Below are positions 1-43,613 of a stretch of 64,000 nucleotides of DNA, piece after piece; the stretch's first letter is position 1, and every line of letters starts with the position of its first letter. This stretch comes from Reclinomonas americana ATCC 50394 (taxonomy: Eukaryota): the NCBI GenBank assembly GCA_048213135.1, contig PS015202.1, positions 87,795 through 151,794 of the forward strand, in the 5' to 3' direction. A program made the translations under genes and the position numbers. The notes beneath the pieces were generated by a model. It worked only from the letters and a program-made list of their open reading frames with translations. It did not search any database and had not been told where the DNA came from.

Positions 1-78
1 GGAGGAAGGAGAGGAGAGAACGAAAAATACTGTTGTGAATATTCAGATCATTGATTGCTTGTATTCATTCATCGTTTC

Positions 79-1233: not shown

Positions 1234-4200
1234 CTAAGCGCGTGCCACCTCCAGTGCCTGCAACAGTTTCTCCACCAGGGTTCGCTTGTCCGAGTAACCG
1301 GGAATGGTGAGCAGGCGGAAGGCAGGCATGGCTGTGGGCAGCCGGTCACAGCCATTGTCGGTAAACACCACCTTCATGTGCCTGGACAACGAGGGGAGAG
1401 AGAGGGAGAGGTGAGCACGGCGACGCCGCTAAAACCAGCAAGCGCCATCACACCAGCCACACTAACCGCTCCATGTAACCCCACGGCTCCGGCAACCTCG
1501 GCATACCCGACACGAAACGCAAAAGCAGACTCAGAATCGTCGAGTCGCACTCGAACAGGAACTGCATCGTGCGTGAGTCACAGCAATTCTCCATGACGAA
1601 CACACACACACGCACGCACTCACCTCGTCAAACCACGACATGATCTCTGGGTGCGGATTACCCAGCGGCACCTTGCGCATGTTGTCCAGCAGCGCCGCCG
1701 CATGCACGTGTCGCGAGCCCTCCAGTGCCACTGCAATGTCGCATCCCTGCAAGGACGACAGGGCGCGATCGACCGGCGCAATGCAGCCGAGTGCCTCGCG
1801 CAGCTTCTCGTAGGCACGCCAGCGACTCGTGCCACCCACCAAATACTCGTAAATCATGACAATGACTGCGAGCTCGGCACCGACGCCTGTGGTTACATAA
1901 AAAAGTGAGCGGGTGAGAAGGTGTGACAGGCTGCAACGCCAACGCAACGAGTAGTCATGTCAAATCTCTCGCCGCACACCACAGGCGACGGTGGCAGGAA
2001 CTCCTCCGGGTGCTCGTGGCGCAGGCCCCATCGCAGGTTGCGGGCCATGGACGGATCTGTCGGATGCAGTTGCATTGTGAGCAGGAGGGGAAGCGTGGAA
2101 GGGGAGGTGCGGACCACAACCCACCAAACGAGTCGAGGTCGCGCAGCCACATGGCCAGCTGCTGCTCGCGCCACGACGCTGGCTTGGCCTGCAATGGCGA
2201 CGAGGGAGGATGAGCATGGAACTGCAACACGTGCGAGCACAACTACTCACAATCAAATCGGCAACCGAGGTCAAATCATCGTTGCCGAGCCGCTGGCGTC
2301 TGCCATACACGGCCTCGTAGACCACCGGATGCAGCGACACCGAGGCCGAGCCAAAGTGCAGCACCGAGTAGATGATCATGTGGCCGATGCCTGCAAACAC
2401 ACACACGCACCCACCTCAGTCAGTGATCTTGGAAGAGAGCGAAAACAATGAATGCGCGCTCACTCACCCTTCCACACTCGCACAAACTCGCGGTCGCCGA
2501 GATTCGTGTCCGCCTGCCGCGCAATTACACACAACGAGCCGTCTTCGACGTCGCTGTAGACCACCAATTTGCTCTCGCGCAGCTGATCAAAGAACGCCGT
2601 GACCAGATTGACGGGCTTGGCAAACGTCTCGCCAGTAAAGTCCACCCGCCAGTCCTTCAACAGATCCTCGGGCTTCAAGTCGGCCGCCTGCTCCGCCATG
2701 TCGAAGAGAAGAGAGCGGCGCGACACGGTTACCAAGTGCAATTCCTGTGCGCCGGAAACACAGAGATATGAGCACGCAGTCGCAGACGCCACGAAAAATG
2801 TGGGGCAGACGGACCTTGGAGGCCATGGCTCTCGAGGATTCGGAGAGAACGCGACGCAGCTCGGCCAGACGCGATGCCGCCGTCATCAGCGACGGGTGCC
2901 GCCGATTGAGGTGCGGCGAGAAGTCAAACACAGGGTGCTTCAGTGCCTCGTGCACCGTCAGGCGCTCCACCGGATCCTGCACGCAAGCGTTATGGACACA
3001 GCCGGCGAACTGTAAAAGGAACAAGGATCAGTACGCAACAGCCCACAGCAAGTGCTGAATGAGGTGAGTCAGGTGGCGATTCTCCAGCTGCGGCAGCAGC
3101 GGTTTGCCATTGTGGTCGTGGTCGTACTTGGTCGGATCGAAAGAGCTGCCGTAGAACGCCTGACCCAGGCACACGCCAATGGCGTACATGTCGGCGGACT
3201 GCGACCGCGTGGTGAGACAACAGCTGCTCGTTCACATTAAAAATGATGACACACACACCGGTGCACATGCGTAGCCGGCTCGCACTTCGGGACTGCAGTA
3301 TCGTGGCATGGCGACGTAGGTGCGCAGCTTGTCGTTGCCCGACGAGTCCAGTGCCTCGAGCGCCGACTCCAGATTACATATTACAGGTCGCTCCTGTGTG
3401 TCATATAGCCATGCACGAATCAGCAATCGCGCACCGACACCTCACTCAACAAAATAAGCGACGCAACATAGGTGTCGAACACAATGCTGGTGAGCTTGAT
3501 GGCACGATGCACAATGTCGAGATTGTGCAGCGACGACAGCGCCGACAAAATGTCCCAGAAAGCTGCCACAATGACGGAAGCAGGTCAGCGCGTGCGTGCG
3601 TCAGTGAGCGATATCAACGACGCACCTCGCAGCGCCTGCTGCTGGCCCTTTGGATTGCGCAGGTCGAGCTTCAGCAGGTAGTCCTCCATGGTGCCATTCG
3701 GGTACCATGGCTGCTGCAAGAAGAGCGCCGGTCCGTCCATGAAATAGCCACGCACGGCGGCCAAACCGCGGTGACGAGCACGGTGCAGCATGGCCAGTTC
3801 TGCGAGTTGAAGCCACATCAGCACCAATCTCTGTCGAGTATCATGAATCCGTGGATGCAAACAAACCCGAGTCCAGCTTCTTCTTGCGCGTCGCCGGATA
3901 GGCCTTCAGGCAAAAGTCTTCGTCGCCAAACGTCACGTGGAAGACGGTGCCGGCGGAAATCACCTCGACCAACTTGTAGTCGGCGAATCGGCGATCCAGC
4001 TCGAGTGCACCCGGTTGCGGTTGCACAGTCATCCCGCTGCCTACAGCAGGTGATGCGAGTGGGGTGGGCGGCATCAGATCGGTTCCCACATCGCTACGCA
4101 TGCGGTGGCGCAATGCCGTGTTGCGGTACACGGTGCGGATGACGAAATCGTCGTCGGAGAAGAGGTCGCCGAGTTGCATCATGTTGATGTACACGCACTT

Positions 4201-7114
4201 GTCGCAGAACAATTCGAGAGCGCCGAGTTTGGCGGCCTCCACCGCCCGCTGAAACGCATCAGGAGACAGTTAGCTGATGCTACTATGCTTGTGTGTGTAC
4301 GAGATGCACACACACCATGAGCGAGCCGTGACGCTTGCCGCGCACAACATTCAACAAGTCCATGGTGTCCGCAAGCTGGCGGTTGAGCTCCGCTTCCCGG
4401 ACACTAATGTCGGGTGACCTGTTTGATCGGGGCGGGGGCGAGGAGTAAGGAATAACACGACAGGCACTGGGGCGCATCACGTGAACAAGCTGACCTCCAG
4501 TGTCGTCGGTCAAACTCCAGCTTGCGCTTCTGGCCCTCAATCGCAATGATGCGATCCTCCAGATACGGTTCCTGCTCGTCGAGGTTGCTCATGGCCAGAC
4601 GCACGGCACGCAGTGTGTCCACCGTGTGCGTCACGCTGTTCATCACCTCTGTGTGTGCGACGACGCAAACAGTGAGCACGAGTGCTGTGCTTGAAAACAG
4701 CGACAGCCGCACCTTTGCGAATGAGCTTGATCTGCTGATGCATGTAGGTGACCATGGTGAGGGGCTCGGTGGAGCTGGCGCGATTGCGCGTCAGCTGCGT
4801 CAGTGCCTGCCACGTGAGCATGCACAGCTCGCCACCAATCACTCGCTCCTCATCCTCGCGCACAGTAACCTCCTTTAGAGCGGAGGCGCCGAGGTCGCGC
4901 AGCCGCGCAAATGTCAGGTCGTGCAAACCGCTGACACACTCGGGTGGATTCGGGTTGGGTGCCAGGCGATCTTCAATGGCACCACGCGCCTCGAGGACAT
5001 CGGCCCACGGGACGAGGCGCTCCTCGATAATCTGCATCAGCTTGGTCGAGTCTGCCAGCAGCACATCGGCCGCATCGCCAATCTTGCGGAACAAGTGATC
5101 GCGCTCGTGTTTCGCTGTCACCAACACCAATCGTCAGTTCGTGGCGCAATTCCCCCTGCCCTTCCTCCCTCCCTCCTCCACAACCCCAACTCACCCTTGG
5201 CATCCAACAAGCCGGCTCGGATAAACTCTTGTGTCAGCAATTCGCGATGTCGTCGCAATTCGGTAGTCATGTCCTCAAATCGCGCCTTGAACAGCGAGTA
5301 CAGGAGCCGGTTCTCCTCGTCAACTAATCGCGACAGAGTAATGAGAAGATAGTGAGAGAGAGAGAGAGCGTGAGGGTGGGTACTGTGACGCACAGGAAAT
5401 GTTGCGTGTGGTGACCGTCAGTCGCACATATTCGACCAGCCACTCCAGCACCGGCATGATGAGATTGTCGAGGTTCCACTGGTCGTCGGTCGGGAGTGCC
5501 TCACCGGGCGTCGGCAGCACATCTGCACAGCAGGAGGGGCGGTGAGGAGGAAACGATGAGTAGAGTCGAAGGAGGGGGGAACAGACCTTGCATGGTCATG
5601 GACTGCAGGCGCTCGAGTTCACCATCCGCCGGCAGCGCGGGCGGCGGCACCGGAGTCATGAGGGTGTCGGTCTTTGGCGTCTCGCGAATGGCGGTCGCAC
5701 TCTTTCCACCTGCAGCGGCAGCAGCAGCAGCGTACACACAATACAGAGTCAAGGGGAACAGGAACTCGCAACATGGGGGGAAAAATCAATCAACGCGGCG
5801 AAACACAAGGATATCAGTCGGCTGTCGACTCGTGCGTACAGCGTGGTGTTCGACTGCAAGCCGAGCTCCGTGTGCACGTCGACGTTGCGGGCGATCACAT
5901 CGGAGCCGTCTCGTGAGAGCGTCAGCACAATGTCTTCGGTGGCGACGCCGCTCATCTCCAATCCGACCCGGTAGTACAGCGTGTTGCTGTCGTTGGTGTG
6001 GAAGGTGACGACCTTGCACGAGCCGGCCGGCAGCGTGCCATCGTCAATCTCCACTCGCACACGAAACATGCTAGCACGCACGAAAAGAAATGTCAGCGCA
6101 GGAGCGTGCGGGTGTGTGCGTGGCGTACTGCGCGCAACTTCATGCCAGGCGCGGGAGACGGCGCCGGCGTGGCCAGTGGCGATCCGAGCGACGACCACGA
6201 GATGCGCGACGGCGAGCGCGAGTGCGTCGACGACGTAGGCGACTCGGCGTACGTCGACACGCTCGTGTTGGAGTCGCGGACACTCGGCCGACGACGGCGC
6301 GGTGGAGCTGGGAGATAGAAAACACATGAGGCATGACAAGCACGAGTGAGAGACCGTGTGTGTGTGTGTGGCGACGCAACGAGTGCGCATGTTGGCCGCA
6401 TCGCCGCCAGCCGCCGGGTCGATGATTTGCACCGACGGCGAGTGCGACGACACTGGTGGCGGCGGAGGCGGCGTCCGCTGCTGCTGCTGTGCGGCCGCTG
6501 CTTCCTCCGCCAGCTGCGCCACCATTCTCGGCGGCGGTGCCACTCTCGGTGGCGACGCCGACGAAGCCGCCGCTGCCGCTGCTGCCGCCGCACGTGGCCC
6601 ATTGTGGCCACTCATCTGGATCGCGCTATCACTCTGATGGTGCGGCAGGCCAAGAATCGGCCACAGATCCGGGTGCGACAGGCGCCGTGGCATGATCGGC
6701 TCCTCGTCCTCACGAACCGGCGCAGGCGGCGCAGGCGGCAGCTCCGACCGCCGCTGCGAGTTGCGCCGCTGCCTCTGTGCAAGTTGAAGGAGAAATTGAG
6801 ATGCGTCAATGCACACACGCACACACACACACACAATGCGAAATGTCAACCGTGTGTGTGTGTGATTACGCAACAGCACGGATCTGCGCCCACGGTGTTG
6901 CACTGGAGGGTTCATGCGACAGCTCAAAGAGGCCATCGACCGGCACACTGTCAATGGAAGTGGGTTTTGTGTGACGCGGCGGGAGTTTTGGAGGCGGAGG
7001 CGTCTTGCCCACAGCCGCCACTGCTGCGCCACTGCCCAGCGCAGCCACAGCCGCCGCTGTCAGCGTCGAGGGAGGCGCACTGTGGCGGTGATGGTGCGGA
7101 GCCGCCGACGCCAT
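1234..7114 (-). CDS. Multi-exon protein: low-complexity N-terminus, Ubl-like domain, coiled coil, pseudokinase and degenerate HECT domain
   Basis: Kinase motifs: FCLK, LAELAML, PWYPNGTMEDYL, IVHRAIKLTSIVF, VICNLESA, YCSPEV, SADMYAIGV, DPVERLTVHEALKHPVF. HECT motifs: VSRRSLL, DLLKDWRVDFTGE, LRDLDSFDPSMARNLRW, LLRFVSGMPRLP, RLPTAMPAFRLLTIPGYSDKRTLVEKLLQAL. ATG at 7114, TAG at 1234-1236. Joins in the 4000-6400 region were not all resolved. Confidence 0.75.
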
Positions 7115-8350
7115 TGCTTCTCACGCTCTCTCTTCGTCGCAGTGTGTGTGTGGTTTGGCGATGATTGCGTGTGATGAAGGTGAAATTTGCACTTTTTTCC
7201 GCTTTCCGACTCTCTTGCGCGGTGCGTTTACACAACAAGGCGCGTCGTGTTGTGTAAATCGTCATCAAAGTGATAAACCCTTCGTGTGCCGCGGTGGGCG
7301 CCTGATAAAGCAAATTTGCTTCTGCTTTTTGCGTATCGTTCGCTGGCATTTGGAGACATTACAAAGGTGCGGGGGAATTCACTTAGCCACTGTGAGGCTT
7401 ACAAGAGAGAGGGGGGGGGATGATTTGCGTCGAGAGAGAGGGGGGAACNNNNNNNNNNNNNNNNNNNNNNNNNNNNNNNNNNNNNNNNNNNNNNNNNNNN
7501 NNNNNNNNNNNNNNNNNNNNNNNNNNNNNNNNNNNNNNNNNNNNNNNNNNNNNNNNNNNNNNNNNNNNNNNNNNNNNNNNNNNNNNNNNNNNNNNNNNNN
7601 NNNNNNNNNNNNNNNNNNNNNNNNNNNNNNNNNNNNNNNNNNNNNNNNNNNNNNNNNNNNNNNNNNNNNNNNNNNNNNNNNNNNNNNNNNNNNNNNNNNN
7701 NNNNNNNNNNNNNNNNNNNNNNNNNNNNNNNNNNNNNNNNNNNNNNNNNNNNNNNNNNNNNNNNNNNNNNNNNNNNNNNNNNNNNNNNNNNNNNNNNNNN
7801 NNNNNNNNNNNNNNNNNNNNNNNNNNNNNNNNNNNNNNNNNNNNNNNNNNNNNNNNNNNNNNNNNNNNNNNNNNNNNNNNNNNNNNNNNNNNNNNNNNNN
7901 NNNNNNNNNNNNNNNNNNNNNNNNNNNNNNNNNNNNNNNNNNNNNNNNNNNNNNNNNNNNNNNNNNNNNNNNNNNNNNNNNNNNNNNNNNNNNNNNNNNN
8001 NNNNNNNNNNNNNNNNNNNNNNNNNNNNNNNNNNNNNNNNNNNNNNNNNNNNNNNNNNNNNNNNNNNNNNNNNNNNNNNNNNNNNNNNNNNNNNNNNNNN
8101 NNNNNNNNNNNNNNNNNNNNNNNNNNNNNNNNNNNNNNNNNNNNNNNNNNNNNNNNNNNNNNNNNNNNNNNNNNNNNNNNNNNNNNNNNNNNNNNNNNNN
8201 NNNNNNNNNNNNNNNNNNNNNNNNNNNNNNNNNNNNNNNNNNNNNNNNNNNNNNNNNNNNNNNNNNNNNNNNNNNNNNNNNNNNNNNNNNNNNNNNNNNN
8301 NNNNNNNNNNNNNNNNNNNNNNNNNNNNNNNNNNNNNNNNNNNNNNNNNN

Positions 8351-9258
8351 TTTGGCCTTGACCACAAAGGGCGCCGAGTGAATGACCAGCATGCGGTGCG
8401 CGGGATCCGCCGCATCGGCCACCGTCAGTTCCAGACGGAAGCGCGAGCCCTTGTGTCGCGACGACTGCGTGCGCAGCGTCAGCGCGCTCTCGCCCTCGTA
8501 CACCGACTCGCCACTGCATCGGCTCAGCGCAAACGACACGTCGCCCTGCAGCGGCGGTGGCTCGCACACCACATCAGCGCCCGTCTCCGTAATCAACGAC
8601 ACATGCACCACCGCCGAGTGTCCACCAGGCAGCAAACTGTTCAGCCCATCCACGCGCAACAGCAGGTGCGACGAGTATGGCGCCGAGTACTGCACATCGG
8701 CACTGCAAACAACGTCCGTCCATGAGCGTCCACAATGCTATTAATGCACACGCCAGACAACAACAACAGAAAAACGCAACAGATCAGTGGAGAACTCGGT
8801 GCGCTGCTGGCGAGCCGACTTGAAGAGCACCTGGAACGGCACCGTGTAGCCTGCACGCACAAAGGAGCGTGTGAGCAACACAGTCTATTTCAGGTCGAAC
8901 ATTGTCGCGCGTCAAAGCAAAACTCACCGCCCACAAGCGTCCAGCTGCCCACCTCTCGCGCAGCGGCTGGTGGCGCTGGTGGCGGTGGTGGTGGTAGTGG
9001 TGGCGCACACCACACAGCAGTCGACGAGGACAAGGCGGCAGGCGGCAAACACGTGGTGGGCGGTTGCGAAGGCATAGGCGGTGGTGGTGGCATCGACATT
9101 GGTAGCGCCACTAGCGGAGGCGACGCGCTTGTGAAGCCATCATCATCGTCACCAAAGCCGCCGCCAAAGCCAAAGTCGTCGTGTGGTGGTGGCGGTTGGT
9201 GATGGTGATGGTGCATGTTGGCCCACCAGCCGCCGCTGTCCAGGTCGTCGCTGTTCAT
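8351..9258 (-). CDS. Partial gene (3' end in gap): His/Pro-rich N-terminus plus possible CudA-like Ig-fold DNA-binding domain
   Basis: MNSDDLDSGGWWANMHHHHHQPPPP... is followed by the exon ...LTLRTQSSRHKGSRFRLELTV...IHSAPFVVKAK, which resembles the S-x-x-H...F-x-L...S-x-P-F-x-V-x-x-K pattern of CudA-type transcription factors. The family assignment is by eye only. Confidence 0.45.
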
Positions 9259-19056: not shown

Positions 19057-20167
19057 CTAAAAATCTGATATCGATGGTTGGTTGTTGAGGACAAGCGACG
19101 TTTGTGTTCTTTTGTTGTTGTTGTTGTTGTTTACACGTGTTACAAAAAGGCAGTGGTTGTGGAGGACTGAAGCTTCCGCCTGGTTTTTTCTCTTTTCTGT
19201 GCGCTCATCGGGCTTCGGCGATCGAGCTGTGCCGGCTGTGTCTGCTGGTGGCAAAGTGAGCGAGGGAAGGAAGTGATGCATGGTGTGACGATGGCATACC
19301 TGGCGCCGGCAGAGGAAGGGCGACCGGAGGGAGAGCGCGTGCTGCCGCCCGGGGAGGAGGCAAGCAGCTGGGCGGCGGTGACAACGGTTCCCGAGTTGGA
19401 TCTCGAGTGCCTGCGAGGCGAGTGCGTGGGAGGCGAGTGAGTCCATGAGAGATCGAAGAAACCGAGGGATACGATCCACTGACCCGCCGCGTGAGGGTGC
19501 CGGTGCGGGTGTTGGTGAGGCAGGCGCTGCGGAGCCATTCGAATGCTGGGTGGGAGTGGCGCGCGGAACCACTGGCTCACTAATGTCGCCGGTCACGCGT
19601 CGCCGGTGACCGCTGGCCGCACTGGCTGAGGCCGGTCGCTTGACGGCCTCGCTCTTTGGTGACGTCTGCAGCACGAACCGACTTTGTCAGGAAAAAATCC
19701 ACACAGCCGGGCGACATTTCCTCCACAAACCTCGTTCATCAACAAGACGGCCGAGGGTCGCACAAAAATGCCATAGTCCATGGGAGCGGCAAAGTACTTG
19801 ACTCCCATCACTGCACCGTCGTTCTTGCCGACTGCCGCACGTCTCCGTCGGTGAGTGGCGAAGGAGAATGCAAAAAAAGCGTGCAAAAACATGACGCAAC
19901 ATGGTTGATCGAGTTCCACGCCGATCCACACACCCGGTGCGAACTGCACGTCGCCATTGTAGCGCACAGTGCCAGCGTGCTGTCGGCCCGTGGCCTTGAC
20001 ACGCGTGCCCACTGGCAGTGATGCAGCGCGAGAACTCTCATCCGCCTGTGACACGGTGAGTGACTCTTCTTCTGCCTTCCCCAATCCTTTCCCTCACACG
20101 CACCTCGGTGTAGTGCAGCTCCGTCAGTGGAGCCGCGGCGGCGGCAGTGGCGGTGGGCGATGGGCGC
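19057..20167 (-). CDS. CAP-Gly domain protein 1 (C-terminal part; 5' part in or beyond the gap)
   Basis: VGTRVKATGRQHAGTVRYNGDVQFAPGVWIGVELDQP|FGKNDGAVMGVKYFAAPMDYGIFVRP, with the GKNDG motif. Intron donor at 19900. Confidence 0.75.
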
Positions 20168-23889: not shown

Positions 23890-25912
23890 GCGCAGCAAGT
23901 GCAAATGCAAGTGCCGGTGAAACTGGCCGACACGCCGGAGCAGATTTCGCTGCCGAAAACCGCACTTTCGCCACTGCCGCAGCGACCGCGCAGCAGCGCG
24001 TCTCGCGCATCCGAGGGACCGCGAGCACTGGCGGATTCACCGCTGCGGTTGCGTGTGGCGGCGGTGGCGCTGTCACCGCGGCTGGGCACTCCGTCGGACC
24101 CCTCGTCGCCCATGCTGGACGATGCGGCGTCGGCGAATTCGGCATTCAAGGCTGTGCTGTCACCCCGGAATGTGCAATTACTCTCCGCGTTTGGGTCGCC
24201 CCGACCGTTTGATCCGACTGCCGCATCTCCATTCAAGGAGTTGCCAATGGGCGACGGAAGCAGCACGGCGGCGTCCTCGCAGCAGCACTCCTTCCTGTAC
24301 ACACCATCGTCTGTGGCTTCGACCGCCAGCCATTCTTCTCGTCGCCTCTCCTCGGAAATCGTGAATCACAACAGCGTCGGCGCAAGTGGCAGCACCATCA
24401 AGGTGAAGTTTTCTCTTTCCGTGCCTGTGTTTTTTTGGGGGAGTGTATTTCTGTTGCTGATGTTACTGTGCGTGACACACAGGTGCCACCGCTGTTCGTA
24501 CCGGGAACCGGCGGCTCACTTGCTGGCGGCAACAACATTCCGTCGGCACTCCAGCGCGATGACCATCAGTTGCCGGTGTGTGTCCATACCTGGGTGTGTA
24601 TGTGTGCTATATGTGTATCTCTACAAGGTTGCACTCACTGACCGCCCCACCTCGTTTGTGTTACCCAGGCCAAGCGAACACTGTCGCCACCGAATCGGTC
24701 GAGCGGCTCCTCGGCCCACCCCATTGTGCCGCCACTGTTGTCGTTGCGCCAAGTCAGCGCCAACAACTCGCTCCTCAACAGCAGCACGTTGACGGAGGAC
24801 AGAGACAACGACCACTCGCTCGGCAACTCGCAGATCCACACCGGCTCCGATGAGTACGAGGATGCGTCGCCGAGGAGAAAACAGCGGACACCGCGCTCGC
24901 GGCCGAGCTCATCGCAGGTCACACCACGGGAGCGCAAGGCACTGACGCCACGTGAACGGAGCTCACGAATGGTCGGTCGCTCCAAAGTACGCGGTGGCGC
25001 CGGCGCCAACGATGCGATTGGACTGGAGATCGGTGATCGCGTCACGGCCACAGCCGACGCACGTCCGGGCACCATCCGTTTCATGGGCTACACCAAGTTC
25101 TCGGAGGGCTTTTGGATTGGCATTGAGCTCGACGAGCCCTGTTGCGTCACTTTTTACTTTTCCCCCTGTGCTGGTGTGTGATTTTATGTCTCTCACCGCC
25201 GACACACGCCCGGAGCAGTTGGCAAGAACGACGGCAAGGTCAGCAACACGCGCTATTTTTCGTGCCCGCCAATGTGCGGAGTGTTTGCACGTCCGTCGGC
25301 CGTCATTCTCTTGCGGAGAGAGTCGGTATGTGCTCGTTTGTTGTTGATTTTATTGGTTCGCAAGTACTGCCTCTTACGTGCATCTCTTTCAGGTGAGCGA
25401 TCGCGGCGCAAGTCCTAACCGAGCTGCGGCAGCACAAAGGTGTGCACTGTTGTTGTTTTTCCTTTGCTGTCTGTGCGGTACAACTTTCTCATTCGTGTGT
25501 GACGCAGACGCCCGAACAAGAGCCCCGGCAGATCTATCGCTGGCAATCCTGCTGTTGGAAGCAGCACACTCGAGAGTCCACGGTACGCGGTCACAGAAAC
25601 GCGCAGCATCATACTGCCCACCTCTTCGTCTCATTTGTGGTGCATGGCAGACTGCCCCGACTTTCCACCGAGAGACTAGTGTCGTACAGCAGTCCGCGGA
25701 GGGCGCCACACGAGCCACTGTCGGCTCGTGACGCGCCAACTGGTATTCCGTCACCGCGACGATTGGCACCCACGGCTCCGGCCACCACGCGACCGAGTGG
25801 CACTAGCGGCTCGTCGACAGTGGGCGCCACGGTCAGGAGACCTAGCGGGGCAGGCGGCGGCTCGATAACACCGCGAGAGCGATCGCTTGTTCGTGCGGGA
25901 ATCAAGCGTTGA
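22902..25912 (+). CDS. Coiled-coil, poly-A/poly-Q, CAP-Gly domain protein 2 (3' end approximate)
   Basis: MTTEVEELRSE...LLRSENKELRLELEQLK coiled coil, then a poly-Q tract. CAP-Gly domain LEIGDRVTATADARPGTIRFMGYTKFSEGFWIGIELDEP|FGKNDGKVSNTRYFSCPPMCGVFARPS. Confidence 0.78.
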
Positions 25913-26149: not shown

Positions 26150-29100
26150 CGCCGGGCGGTCATCTCGGCTCGTCCTACCGACCGACCGCACCCCGTGTAG
26201 GCCGCCTCACCACTCTGTGTGTGCGGCACGGCGACAAGTAAGCATAATCTCGTCCACCCAACAATAATTTCAGCACGGCATTGCACGCAACGGTGGTGGG
26301 TTGGTGCCCGTGGTGCCTGCGGCGGTTGCCGAGCGCTGTCCAATACGTCTCCTGCAGATATGCACAGCTTAGCAAAGGCTACGCACTGCACGCCAGTGCA
26401 CATAAGGAAACGCACCGTGGGCTCTCGGCTTGTCCGCGCGCCACCATGGCCACGTTGACAGGCGATCGTCTCTTGTCGTGCAGCTGTGACAGTGCCGCTG
26501 GTACTGGCGCCACAAACTCCGGCGATTCTCGAGTGTTACTGGAGGAACGCAGTGGACTGCGTGTGGCTGGCCGTTGTGCACGTCTGCAAGCACACACACA
26601 CACCATATGAGACAGGAGAATGGCGGCGACAAGCCCTCCACACGGCACGTACCGAGGACTGGTAAGTGCCTCCACATCACGCGGCTGGTATTGATGGACT
26701 CGCGACGAGTGCGGCGGTGAGTTTCCACGCGGATTGCTCGACGGTCGCGGCGATCCCACCGGGCTGGTGGTGTCGCTGTATGAAGAGAGATGTGCGTCGT
26801 CAGCACAAAATGTAAACGGTGGTGCTTTTGTGCCTCTCTCACAAACACACCGAGGATTGCGCCGACTGGGGACGGCAGACGAGGAGCGTCGTGGTGGCGA
26901 GCTCTCACGGCGGCCGTTGCCGCTCGAGGATCCCGAGGCCGCCGCAACTGCACCCTCATCCGGCTGATCCCAGTACGGAATGACGCCCGACGGGCGGGCA
27001 AACACGCCGTGGAACATTTGGCACGTAAAGTAGCGCACGCCCTTGACTTTGCCGTCGTTCTTGCCATACGGTTTGTCGAGCTCAATGCCCACCCACAGAC
27101 CGTCGGCAAACTTGGTCGGCCCAACGTAGCGAATCGTTCCCAGCAAGAACTCTTGCGTCACTGTCACACGATCGCCGACTTCGAAATGGTGCACGCGGCT
27201 CGGATCGCTCATTGGCTGCACAGAACAAATCAGTACGCAGCGCGACAAGACAACGGCAACTGTGCATGATCGCAACGTCAATGCCTTCCGGAGTGCTGTT
27301 CCTCGATGAGCGGCCATCGGATGTGGTCGATCCCGGGCGGCTGCCACGGCGCGGTGGCGACATGCGACCGCCCGGACCGCCCGGACCTGGTGACTGCTGC
27401 CGAGTAGGACCACGGGCCGACTGTGGTACCATCACACCCGACGCCAGTGTCGAATCGGAGCGGGAACCGAAACTGCCACGCAGTGTCGAGGTCTCCGATC
27501 GCGTCGACCGGTTGGTCAACAAACCACCCTCGTCTTCGGCAATCCCGTCGTGCCCAACACCACCTCCGTACTCGGCCGACAGCACCGTGTCGTGCACTGG
27601 AATGACATGCGGCCGGCCAGGAATGCGCTGGAACGGGTGGTACTTGATCGGATTCGAGTAGGCACCAGAGGTTTCGTGCACGACGCGCTCGACACGCTCC
27701 AGTGAAGTCAGCTCGTGCTTGATTTCGAATCGCNNNNNNNNNNNNNNNNNNNNNNNNNNNNNNNNNNNNNNNNNNNNNNNNNNNNNNNNNNNNNNNNNNN
27801 NNNNNNNNNNNNNNNNNNNNNNNNNNNNNNNNNNNNNNNNNNNNNNNNNNNNNNNNNNNNNNNNNNNNNNNNNNNNNNNNNNNNNNNNNNNNNNNNNNNN
27901 NNNNNNNNNNNNNNNNNNNNNNNNNNNNNNNNNNNNNNNNNNNNNNNNNNNNNNNNNNNNNNNNNNNNNNNNNNNNNNNNNNNNNNNNNNNNNNNNNNNN
28001 NNNNNNNNNNNNNNNNNNNNNNNNNNNNNNNNNNNNNNNNNNNNNNNNNNNNNNNNNNNNNNNNNNNNNNNNNNNNNNNNNNNNNNNNNNNNNNNNNNNN
28101 NNNNNNNNNNNNNNNNNNNNNNNNNNNNNNNNNNNNNNNNNNNNNNNNNNNNNNNGGTCCCTGGTGCATGGCTGTCGGCGGATGGCGCTCGTAGCCGTCA
28201 GCCGCCGTGTCGACACTGTTGAGCACGTCCAGCGGCTCCACCGGCTCGGGGCGCGGCTCACGAGACGGCGACCGGCTCGCTCGTCGGTCGGTGGACGACG
28301 ATCGCTGGTGCACCGCTGGCTTCGTGTTCAGCGTCGGCAGTGGCCGCTGCTGCTGCGTGGGCGACGACGAGTGCTGCAACCGCGGCGATATCGCCGGCTG
28401 GAAGGCCGACGCTCCGCCAACGTCGTCGCGAGGGCTCACTGGCGATGTTGTGTCGCGCGGTGACAAGCCAATGAGACGTGGCGACTGCGGTCCAAGCGGC
28501 GGCTGGAACGACGGCATCGAAGACTCGTTGGCGGCAGGGCGCATCGGTCGCGGTGAAATGGCGTTCTTGGGCACCGTCGACAGATCGAGCGGCAAAATGA
28601 CAGCTGGGTTGCGTGACAGCGTGTCAGGCACACCGGGAGTGTTTTCAGATGGCGGTGGCCACCGTCCGGCGTTGCCTCCATTCGGCACATTCAACAGCGG
28701 CACATTGACACGCGTGGGCGAAGGCCGATTGTTGCCGGCTCCAATCGCGTCCAGTTGAGCCTTGAGCTCTGCATTGCGCTTCTTCAAGTCTGTGTTCTTG
28801 CGCTCCTCCTGTATACTCCGTCGTGTGAGATACACCATTATGTGCGCGACAGCAGCAGCAGCAACGCAACCTCCCGCAAGGAGTTCTCCAACTGCTGAAC
28901 GAGCTGATTGCTGGCTGCANNNNNNNNNNNNNNNNNNNNNNNNNNNNNNNNNNNNNNNNNNNNNNNNNNNNNNNNTTCAGCTGCTCCTGGCTCTTGCGCG
29001 ACTCGGCGTGCCTCTTGGCCTGGTTCTGCGCACGCACAACCTCATCCTGTGCTGTGCGCAACTCGGCTCGGAGATCCCAAATCTCATCGTGCAGATTAGA

Positions 29101-42377: not shown

Positions 42378-43613
42378 TCATGCGCGGTACAGCCTGATCG
42401 GGAAGTTTTCCGTGATTTGATAGCCTGGCGCACCATAGTCAGCGTGTTGGCATGGAAATGTTTAAAGGCAAGCAGCACACAAACCATCCTCCAGCAACAC
42501 CACAAGGTTGACCTCGAACTCGACGCGGAACTGCTCCGAGATCAGCGTCGGGCACGTGAACAGGCGCGGGAAGATCATGTGAATGGGTATGGAGAAGTCG
42601 CGGCACACGTCGCCGTCGGCAATCTGAATGTTCTGAATCTCGGTGGCTGCTCAACGACGAGACTGAGAAACAAATGCGCACTCCGCGCCGAGACTGCCAT
42701 CGCACAGCTCACCTTCTTTTGCGGTGCCGTCCTCCTGACTCTTGATGGTCTCCACACGCACCAGTTGCACCTCGATACTCTTAATGAGGCTCTCCGACTT
42801 GCGCACGGTGACGAGGCCGGTGAAGGGTCGCGTGATCTCACACAGCACCGAATCAATGTAGCCGTCGACGGCAAAGTCGGGAATGCGCGACAGCGAGCTC
42901 TTCTTCACATTGCGCAGCGACTCGGGCACAATGCTGAAATCCACTCGCCGCTCCTCCTGCTTGTGCGACCGCAAATGCACCACAAACTCGGTGCTGCGCT
43001 TGACATTGCGCTGCATGAAGCCGCGTTGCATCTCCACCGAGATCACATATCGCACATTGACAAACACGCCGTGATATGTCTCAAACAGCTCCCTGCCCGC
43101 ATCCGCCGGCTGCACCAACTCAAACTCAAAGGGCACCTGTGTTGTGGCACCCAGGAGGTGAGCAAGACAAGTGTGAAGCTGTTGCGCGTGCGTGCTTGCT
43201 TGCGGACCTCCCACACGCCCTTTTCGAACTTTCCCGGCGGCACCACCTCGAACTGCACCGAGAACAGCTCCAGCGGCTTCACATTGTTGTAAAACGCCTC
43301 GAACAGGCCCACAGACTTGGCACTGAGGTCGAGCTTGACACCGCCCTCCGCCGACAATGTGACACCCTGATGCTTCAGCGACGAATCCGTCGAAATCACC
43401 TAAAGGCGGAGGCGGATGAGGAGAAAAGTGAGTGGTGAGTGCGAGGTTAGTCTGTTCCACAGTACACGCACCACAAAGCCCGACACCGTGTCCTGCATCG
43501 CGCGTGTGTGAGAAAATGAGTGAGATTGGCGAGAGAGACTGACAGCATTCGCACGCAACTCCTGGTCGGTATGTGCGATCGGCCTTGCGCAGCTTGATCT
43601 CCACCTCCTTCAT
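42378..43613 (-). CDS. VPS26C: Retriever subunit VPS26C (DSCR3)
   Basis: LSAKSVGLFEAFYNNVKP, LFETYHGVFVNVRY, IKSIEVQLVRVET, ATEIQNIQIADGDVCR and C-terminal ITENFPIRLYRA*. Six coding exons, all GT-AG. Confidence 0.92.

Follow-up and report, generated by a model that had tools for sequence, protein, structure and literature searches.

The 64,000-nucleotide stretch analysed here (the window) comes from the protist Reclinomonas americana ATCC 50394 (assembly GCA_048213135.1, contig PS015202.1, positions 87,795 to 151,794), and close to one of its ends the minus strand, from position 7114 down to 1234, can be interpreted as a single spliced gene with 23 exons and 22 introns, which opens with an ATG at 7114 and closes with a TAG at 1236-1234. 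A single open frame of 1,436 codons runs through all 23 exons of this spliced model, and the predicted protein places a protein-kinase-like domain ahead of a HECT-like C-terminal region. The kinase-like part appears to have lost the Asp of HRD, the Asn of the catalytic loop and, by placement, the Asp of DFG, and the HECT-like part appears to have lost its Cys. The predicted regions of the protein, in the order of translation, are the following:

6139..7114, minus strand: low-complexity N-terminus rich in Ala, Pro and Ser as judged from the translation, exons 1-3, about residues 1-268
5806..6069, minus strand: small module, exon 4, residues 269-356, earlier called ubiquitin-like
3988..5709, minus strand: linker and alpha-helical region joining the small module to the kinase-like domain, exons 5-11, about residues 357-790
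2926..3987, minus strand: predicted protein-kinase-like domain without catalytic residues, exons 11-16, about residues 791-1035
1237..2744, minus strand: putative HECT-like C-terminal region, exons 17-23, residues 1073-1436 (364 residues), of which only the end has statistical support
1237..1380, minus strand: end of the HECT C-lobe, exon 23, 48 residues
1234..1236, minus strand: stop codon TAG

The gene model was assembled by hand and in silico from the DNA alone, with one acceptor, that of exon 16, being moved later. The open reading frames (ORFs) of the minus strand, taken from stop to stop, are short coding pieces whose frame switches every 60-400 nt, and the stretches between these pieces have GT at their start and a pyrimidine-rich tract followed by AG at their end. 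All 22 introns of the model are of the GT-AG type, with lengths of 60-100 nt, and the exons and one recurrent donor are placed as follows:

Exons 1-6, minus strand, from high to low coordinate: 7114-6875, 6774-6381, 6307-6139, 6070-5805, 5709-5587, 5522-5394
Exons 7-12, minus strand, from high to low coordinate: 5323-5195, 5114-4713, 4648-4495, 4418-4316, 4248-3867, 3799-3626
Exons 13-18, minus strand, from high to low coordinate: 3562-3468, 3393-3259, 3198-3040, 2976-2815, 2744-2468, 2390-2251
Exons 19-23, minus strand, from high to low coordinate: 2188-2125, 2056-1949, 1886-1624, 1561-1467, 1381-1234
1943-1948, 3034-3039, 3462-3467, 6133-6138, 6375-6380 and 6869-6874, minus strand: GTTGCG, the 5' splice site of six of the 22 model introns

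Over the whole model, the GC content at codon positions 1, 2 and 3 is 0.647, 0.460 and 0.767, respectively, as compared with 0.55 for the introns. The difference between the third and second positions (GC3-GC2), used as a test of frame, is largest in the chosen frame for 21 of the 23 exons, including all 20 of exons 4-23, in which it ranges from 0.13 to 0.45 as against 0.00 +/- 0.16 in intron sequence; codon bias is strong in every exon from exon 4 on, and the two exons that fail the test are exons 1 and 3. The same window carries the gene for the retriever subunit VPS26C (43613..42384, minus strand), whose GC3 of 0.80 is close to that of the model and whose four introns (about 60-66 nt in length, except for one longer intron) begin with GTTGCG, GTCCGC, GTGAGC and GTTTGT. 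The GTTGCG donor of VPS26C intron 1 lies at 43554-43559 on the minus strand, where the exon ends are fixed by homologues. On the strength of codon positions, the frame test and the VPS26C splice sites, the gene model for exons 4-23 goes beyond arbitrary splicing. An earlier reading of the DNA, hereafter the sequence-only reading, had described the kinase and HECT frames as intact over many introns, and the 22 GT-AG introns, the 1,436 open codons and a GC3 of 0.77 against 0.55 bear this out; the intact frame and the GC3 bias together argue against an old, decayed pseudogene.

The splice sites are not all equally firm. In its first version intron 15 measured 30 nt, and use of the next AG, which starts exon 16 at 2976, brings it to 63 nt and joins the frame directly to the kinase-domain end DPVERL...HP.F, for which kinase matches exist in the PDB. 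Two in-frame AG acceptors thus lie 33 nt apart behind one GTTGCG donor (intron 3010-3039 or 2977-3039, minus strand), the distal one fitting both the kinase consensus and the range of intron sizes and the proximal one adding 11 residues; the pair could reflect alternative 3' splicing. Ambiguity also attaches to the exon 4 donor, which has three alternatives, and exons 2-4 can alternatively be read as one unspliced exon within a long ORF (5749..7059). Apart from the exon 16 acceptor, the weak spots of the model (exons 1 and 3, exons 2-4 and the exon 4 donor) fall in or beside the low-complexity N-terminus, and leave the enzyme-like parts unaffected. The GTTGCG hexamer occurs once more on the minus strand inside the gene, at 5767-5772 within proposed intron 4; across the window there are 92 copies against 67 +/- 7 expected, a count reached in none of 100 shuffles, and GTTGCG may be an unusual donor consensus typical of the lineage.

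The kinase-like domain is recognised through individual exons, as the Pfam, PDB and structure searches of this study were made exon by exon or on ORF pieces. Of five kinase-region exons searched against the PDB, three (exons 12, 13 and 16) match kinases independently and in colinear order. Kinases account for 32 of the 34 matches of exon 12 (best E-value 0.0039), which span the domain from alphaC to the hinge and are headed by plant receptor-like kinases and IRAK4; kinases or pseudokinases account for 59 of the 60 matches listed for exon 13, the best being GCN2 (E 0.0022), with alignments that cover the catalytic loop of GCN2, STK33 and BPK1; and kinases again make up 17 of the 19 matches of exon 16 (best E 0.063), which is placed at the very C-terminal end of the domain. 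Exons 14 and 15 found no match in the PDB, exon 14 likewise none in Pfam, and exon 11 matched no Pfam family; altogether, ten clean exons were run against Pfam with no family returned. The candidate active-site elements of the domain are these:

3940..3960, minus strand: degenerate Gly-rich loop ISAGTVF, which has only one of the three usual Gly residues, assigned by pattern only
3486..3509, minus strand: catalytic loop HRAIKLTS, aligned with HRDLKPMN of GCN2 and HRDLKLEN of STK33
3367..3375, minus strand: NLE at the predicted DFG position, 13 residues past the catalytic-loop Ser, placed by spacing and pattern

The PDB alignments of exon 13 to GCN2 and STK33 confirm two substitutions first picked out by eye, with the HRA motif (3509-3501) carrying an Ala (3503-3501) in place of the HRD Asp while retaining the Lys, and a Ser (3488-3486) standing in place of the catalytic-loop Asn. 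The usual spacing from the catalytic-loop Asn position to DFG is 13 residues; here that spacing works only with the GTTGCG donor at 3467, which backs both the donor and the placement of NLE. The other kinase features that had been proposed, namely NLE for DFG, the lack of GxGxxG, and the retention of the beta3 Lys and the alphaC Glu, hold good as far as the letters are concerned: NLE is present, the Gly-rich loop reads ISAGTVF, FCLK at 3915-3904 supplies a candidate beta3 Lys, and DSELAML holds a candidate alphaC Glu, just past which the exon 12 alignment begins. What these assignments draw on is pattern, with spacing in addition for NLE, rather than alignment. The kinase substitutions need several independent base changes, and sequencing error is thus no explanation for them.

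Kinase-like and HECT-like exons are parted only by the 70-nt in-frame GT-AG intron between exons 16 and 17. The 364 residues that follow would fit the length of a whole HECT domain, and the order of the exons presumably follows the landmarks of that domain, a correspondence drawn by eye only. In HECT ligases an N-lobe with the E2-binding subdomain occupies about 250 residues ahead of the C-lobe, and residues 1073 to about 1310 would give it a stretch of suitable length. Statistical support comes from the last exon, whose ORF piece matches the Pfam HECT family (PF00632) with an E-value of 2.1e-6 and 28.1 bits, above the cut-off of 23.9, the match covering only profile positions 252-299 of 306. 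HECT ligases account for 27 of the 31 PDB matches of exon 23, with E6AP taking the first ten places (E 5.5e-6 to 5.3e-4). The positions that matter for catalysis in this exon are:

1318..1341, minus strand: LPTAMPAF, paired with LPTSHTCF of E6AP
1321..1323, minus strand: GCC codon for Ala (A1408), which in the E6AP alignments falls in the catalytic Cys column of HECT
1348..1350, minus strand: Cys1399 within NGCD, the Cys closest to the catalytic column, which it precedes by 9 residues

The E6AP alignments therefore uphold the claim of an Ala at the catalytic Cys position. The column reads Cys in natural E6AP chains, while the chain with the highest score, an E6AP construct, has Ala there too. 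Any Cys codon is two base changes away from GCC, which excludes a single-base sequencing error. As to another Cys that might take the place of the missing one, the nearest, Cys1399, pairs with a Pro of E6AP (NGPD) and not with the catalytic column. Residues 2-47 of the 48-residue query align with residues 64-111 of the 116-residue E6AP chain, and the stop codon comes one residue past the end of this alignment, whereas the E6AP chain runs 5 residues further, so that the extended C-terminal tail is absent, in agreement with the earlier remark that the terminal Phe is missing. This tail, which comes behind the last helix, carries a conserved Phe near its end and is needed for HECT transfer. The loss of a GGxxRE motif after FxGE, also claimed, is a matter of pattern reading only. 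The proposal of a HECT domain thus stands for the last 48 residues, which are statistically HECT; the N-lobe exons gave no HECT match, and a full HECT fold is putative.

A reference set for divergent HECT domains was sought by scanning DNA with a degenerate pattern for the PxAHTCFN motif, which retrieved 26 viral loci. Nine of these, giant-virus loci of IMG/VR (L003, L013, L015, L016, L017, L019, L020, L023 and L025), hold ten large ORFs of up to 1,489 residues whose C-terminal parts are divergent HECT domains; the active-site motif lies 36-71 residues before the C-terminus, and L013 has two such ORFs in tandem. Of seven ORF ends given to Pfam, six are recognised as HECT, with 25-47 bits. A profile built from nine of the ten ORFs gave no match to the spliced model (-3.1 bits with hmmsearch; probability 0.3% and E 0.2 with hhalign). 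The hhalign alignment puts the same Ala in the Cys column, at an E-value of 0.2 that is not significant. Since this profile misses even the C-lobe, the giant-virus family being too divergent, it is uninformative on the N-lobe.

The regions ahead of the kinase-like domain are less distinct. The start codon is uncertain, as is the frame of exon 3, there is an in-frame stop two codons upstream of the ATG at 7114, and Pfam returned for the N-terminal exons 1-3 only DUF6338, below its cut-off. The module of exon 4 had been described as a ubiquitin-like segment (about 5830-6070), a description that found no support: there was no ubiquitin-family match in Pfam at E <= 10, ubiquitin-like proteins were none of the 17 matches of a PDB sequence search, and the AlphaFold model, with six strands and no helix and a mean predicted local distance difference test (pLDDT) score of 55.8, is too poor in quality to decide the fold, gave no Foldseek match at E <= 0.001, and in VIA showed no ubiquitin-like chain among the 50 rows listed, the best (Z 5.1) being unrelated beta sandwiches. 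The coiled coil claimed for the following region fared no better, as the predicted structure of exon 8 shows seven low-confidence helices (pLDDT 59.8) and not a coiled coil, and no Pfam family was found in the linker region, whether on ORF pieces or on the clean exons 8 and 11.

Relatives of the gene were sought at several levels. Exons 11 and 23 found no relative in protein collections of longer proteins, Atlas searches with exons 21 and 17 gave no usable hit, and scans of metagenome contigs yielded 192 pattern matches for exon 8 and 467 for exon 17, none of which was confirmed. Within the window, tblastn of the model returned only three other high-scoring segment pairs, all with E >= 0.75, and hence no paralogue. 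Paralogues or orthologues that keep HRD, DFG or the Cys, which the sequence-only reading had proposed to look for, thus did not come to light in the window or in the collections searched. The conserved VPS26C gene puts these blanks into perspective: among 5.8 billion proteins its best relative has 61% identity and the next about 50%, which indicates a poorly sampled protist lineage and makes the blank searches weak evidence.

Elsewhere in the window the genes are of ordinary eukaryotic kinds, with Pfam recognising three CAP-Gly ORFs together with Kelch, Pirin, LRR, PET191, XPG/EXO1 and ankyrin families. The CAP-Gly ORFs lie at 19596-20093 (minus strand), 24642-25178 (plus strand) and 26382-27431 (minus strand), with E-values of 1.3e-20, 5.5e-10 and 5.6e-26, and, falling within 8 kb, may form a small family at this locus. 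The draft assembly contains runs of N at about 7451-8330, 20.2-20.9 kb, 27.7-28.2 kb, 28.9 kb, 29.7-30.1 kb, 31.9 kb and 33.0 kb. Some 340 nt separate the first run from the proposed start codon, and an exon further upstream is possible. Upstream of the gene, an ORF of 126 codons or more (8360-8737, minus strand), with no Pfam family at E <= 0.001, runs into this gap; it could represent the 3' part of another gene or, with lower probability, a further exon at the 5' end of the present one.

Although the architecture was not recognised when the sequence was first read, the fusion of a kinase to a HECT domain has precedent. LmjF35.4000 of Leishmania major was listed in 2005 as combining a protein kinase, TPR motifs and a HECT domain (PMC1266030). 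Its L. mexicana orthologue, TKUL/HECT12 (LmxM.34.4000), is described as an active dual kinase-HECT ligase, both activities of which matter for amastigotes; its ligase activity requires autophosphorylation, and the integrated kinase domain regulates the ligase and permits allosteric inhibition (bioRxiv 10.64898/2026.05.08.723729, PMC13196369). TKUL/HECT12 and the predicted protein are alike in having a kinase followed by a C-terminal HECT in one polypeptide and a helical region before the kinase, the window protein being an in-silico model; they differ in that TKUL is reported to be active in both domains and keeps the Cys, whereas the window protein appears to be without the catalytic residues of the kinase as well as the HECT Cys, and in that TKUL has TPR motifs and belongs to an intron-less trypanosomatid, whereas the window gene has 22 introns and no detected TPR. 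The primary paper on TKUL is reportedly that of Fokkens et al. 2025 in Mol Cell. What would be new in the present case is therefore not the kinase-HECT fusion, which is already known, but the lack of catalytic residues in both parts; in the literature on pseudokinase and HECT architectures that was covered, no protein is described with both domains inactive.

Three further comparisons help to place the protein. E6AP/UBE3A, the best match of the last exon, shares with it the landmarks LPT...F and PxYS...L..LL.A, and the window protein departs from it in having Ala for Cys and Met-Pro for the preceding His-Thr, in lacking the C-terminal 5 residues, and in an N-lobe that is not detectably similar. 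Among the HECT proteins of L. mexicana, HECT1-12 retain the catalytic Cys, and HECT13 and HECT14 are partial, with 69 and 60 residues, lack the Cys and are called "possible pseudo-HECTs" (PMC7647121). These last two resemble the window protein in being HECT-related, of protist origin and without the catalytic Cys, but are fragments of 69 and 60 residues as opposed to a 364-residue region behind a kinase-like domain. Finally, Tribbles pseudokinases scaffold the E3 ligase COP1, as stated in a review of pseudoenzymes (PMC10211241), and offer a functional analogy, in that a kinase fold without the DFG Asp places partners for an E3 ligase. Tribbles, however, recruits a separate RING ligase via a short motif, whereas here the ligase-like domain would be fused and itself looks inactive. 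The same review states that HECT ligases apparently lack pseudoenzyme counterparts, which is read there as a sign that catalysis is indispensable, and describes migrated catalytic residues and alternative activities such as that of SelO (PMC10211241).

Taking the evidence together, we consider it probable that the gene is real and that both of its inactive-looking domains are real. For the fuller interpretation, that a genuine gene here encodes a scaffold or regulator devoid of catalysis, a dead form of the kinase-HECT fusion, the sequence leaves the balance about even. The central claim of the sequence-only reading, that two inactive enzyme-like parts are combined in one protein, is borne out in so far as both lie in one predicted frame and both are without their canonical catalytic residues; the role of "scaffold or decoy" that was attached to it is something we infer from sequence and no more. 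Under this interpretation the 364-residue C-terminal region would be a whole, very divergent HECT-like domain, and the protein would be expressed and maintained by selection as a kinase-HECT fusion without catalytic function, presumably unable to phosphorylate canonically or to carry ubiquitin as a thioester. The pseudokinase may then act as a docking or conformational module, its retained Lys possibly still binding nucleotide, the HECT-like part could provide a binding surface for an E2 or for ubiquitin, and the protein as a whole would scaffold, sequester or allosterically regulate active partners, possibly including an active paralogue.

Several observations count against this interpretation. 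The matches come from separate exons or ORF pieces rather than from the spliced protein. Exon 13 reaches only E 0.0026 and 17.6 bits with the Pfam family Pkinase (PF00069), below the cut-off of 31.7. No HECT match was found in Pfam for exons 17, 18, 21 and 22, where the N-lobe and the beginning of the C-lobe would be expected, none in the PDB for exons 17 and 22, and none in Atlas for exons 17 and 21, and the C-terminal region may accordingly not be a full HECT fold. Cys1399, 9 residues ahead of the catalytic column, might be a shifted nucleophile. No orthologue or paralogue turned up in the protein, metagenome and window searches. As to the kinship with TKUL in particular, the likeness is one of described architecture, no Leishmania chain is among the PDB matches of exons 12, 13, 16 and 23, and TPR motifs were not detected in Pfam scans of the ORF pieces or exons upstream of the kinase.

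Of the competing explanations, the one that survives best, which we nonetheless regard as unlikely, is that only a remnant of a HECT domain is present, the protein being a pseudokinase followed by a lineage-specific C-terminal region that ends in a piece derived from a C-lobe, with no E2-binding N-lobe and no HECT function. The silence of the four N-lobe exons speaks for it, to which exon 17 adds a complete blank, with 0 hits at E <= 0.001 among 1.84 billion representative proteins; yet the stretch from the end of the kinase to the stop amounts to 364 residues and a short linker, about as much as a complete HECT domain takes up, and exons of 31-92 residues make poor single queries for a divergent domain.

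It is somewhat less likely again that the gene is young or decaying, that is, an active kinase-HECT recently inactivated or freed from constraint, in which breaks of the frame are yet to come. All the catalytic residues that can be checked are gone, the divergence of the N-lobe is extreme, and no relatives were detected in protein collections or metagenome scans, a lack that sampling can explain given the 61% best match of VPS26C. A frame of 4.3 kb has, however, stayed open over 22 introns with intact GT-AG sites and a GC3 of 0.77, and the losses take seven or more separate base changes, which, with no stop or frameshift having arisen alongside them, would be improbable under neutral decay.

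We consider it rather improbable that the protein is a non-canonical enzyme, its HECT-like part working through Cys1399 and/or its kinase-like part through migrated residues or another transfer reaction. Cys1399 sits in the loop just before the catalytic column, candidates for the beta3 Lys and the alphaC Glu are kept by pattern reading, and the migrated residues and SelO-like activities described in the pseudoenzyme review (PMC10211241) offer precedents; set against this, Cys1399 pairs with Pro in the E6AP alignment, the three kinase residues that serve as metal ligands or base appear to be lost together, and the C-terminal tail that HECT transfer needs is absent. Equally improbable is an artefact of the gene model, in which splice sites were picked so as to keep the frame and there are really at least two genes or isoforms (N-terminal, kinase-like and HECT-like), an explanation that can draw on the hand-built nature of the model, the failure of exons 1 and 3 in the frame test, the alternatives at the exon 4 donor and exon 16 acceptor, and the kinase-only product that would arise if intron 16 were retained, the frame then running on to a stop at 2587, but that has to contend with the mere 70 nt between the kinase and HECT-like exons, too short for a terminator, a promoter and a start, with a first Met of the HECT-like frame that falls inside the domain, with intron sizes and donor types that agree with the homology-validated introns of VPS26C, and with a codon-position bias that backs the chosen frame in 20 of 20 exons from 4 to 23.

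If the reading of a real gene for a non-catalytic kinase-HECT protein is carried to its furthest consequence, the window would hold a full-size HECT domain maintained by selection, with its Cys naturally lost and with a pseudokinase fused to it, a dead counterpart of TKUL in an unrelated, intron-rich protist; judged from the sequence, this strong form is possible but unlikely. Should the HECT part prove a remnant, or the locus be unexpressed, the finding would be a mere curiosity of a poorly sampled genome. If the strong form is true, kinase-HECT fusions would be older or more widespread than one trypanosomatid genus, and the interface between kinase and HECT would have been kept for regulation after the loss of both chemistries. 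A Cys-less HECT that is conserved, expressed and full-size would contradict the statement of the pseudoenzyme review that pseudo-HECTs apparently do not occur (PMC10211241). The protein would then be a natural binding-only form of the TKUL kinase-HECT switch, one that parts the allosteric and scaffolding roles of such a switch from its chemistry.

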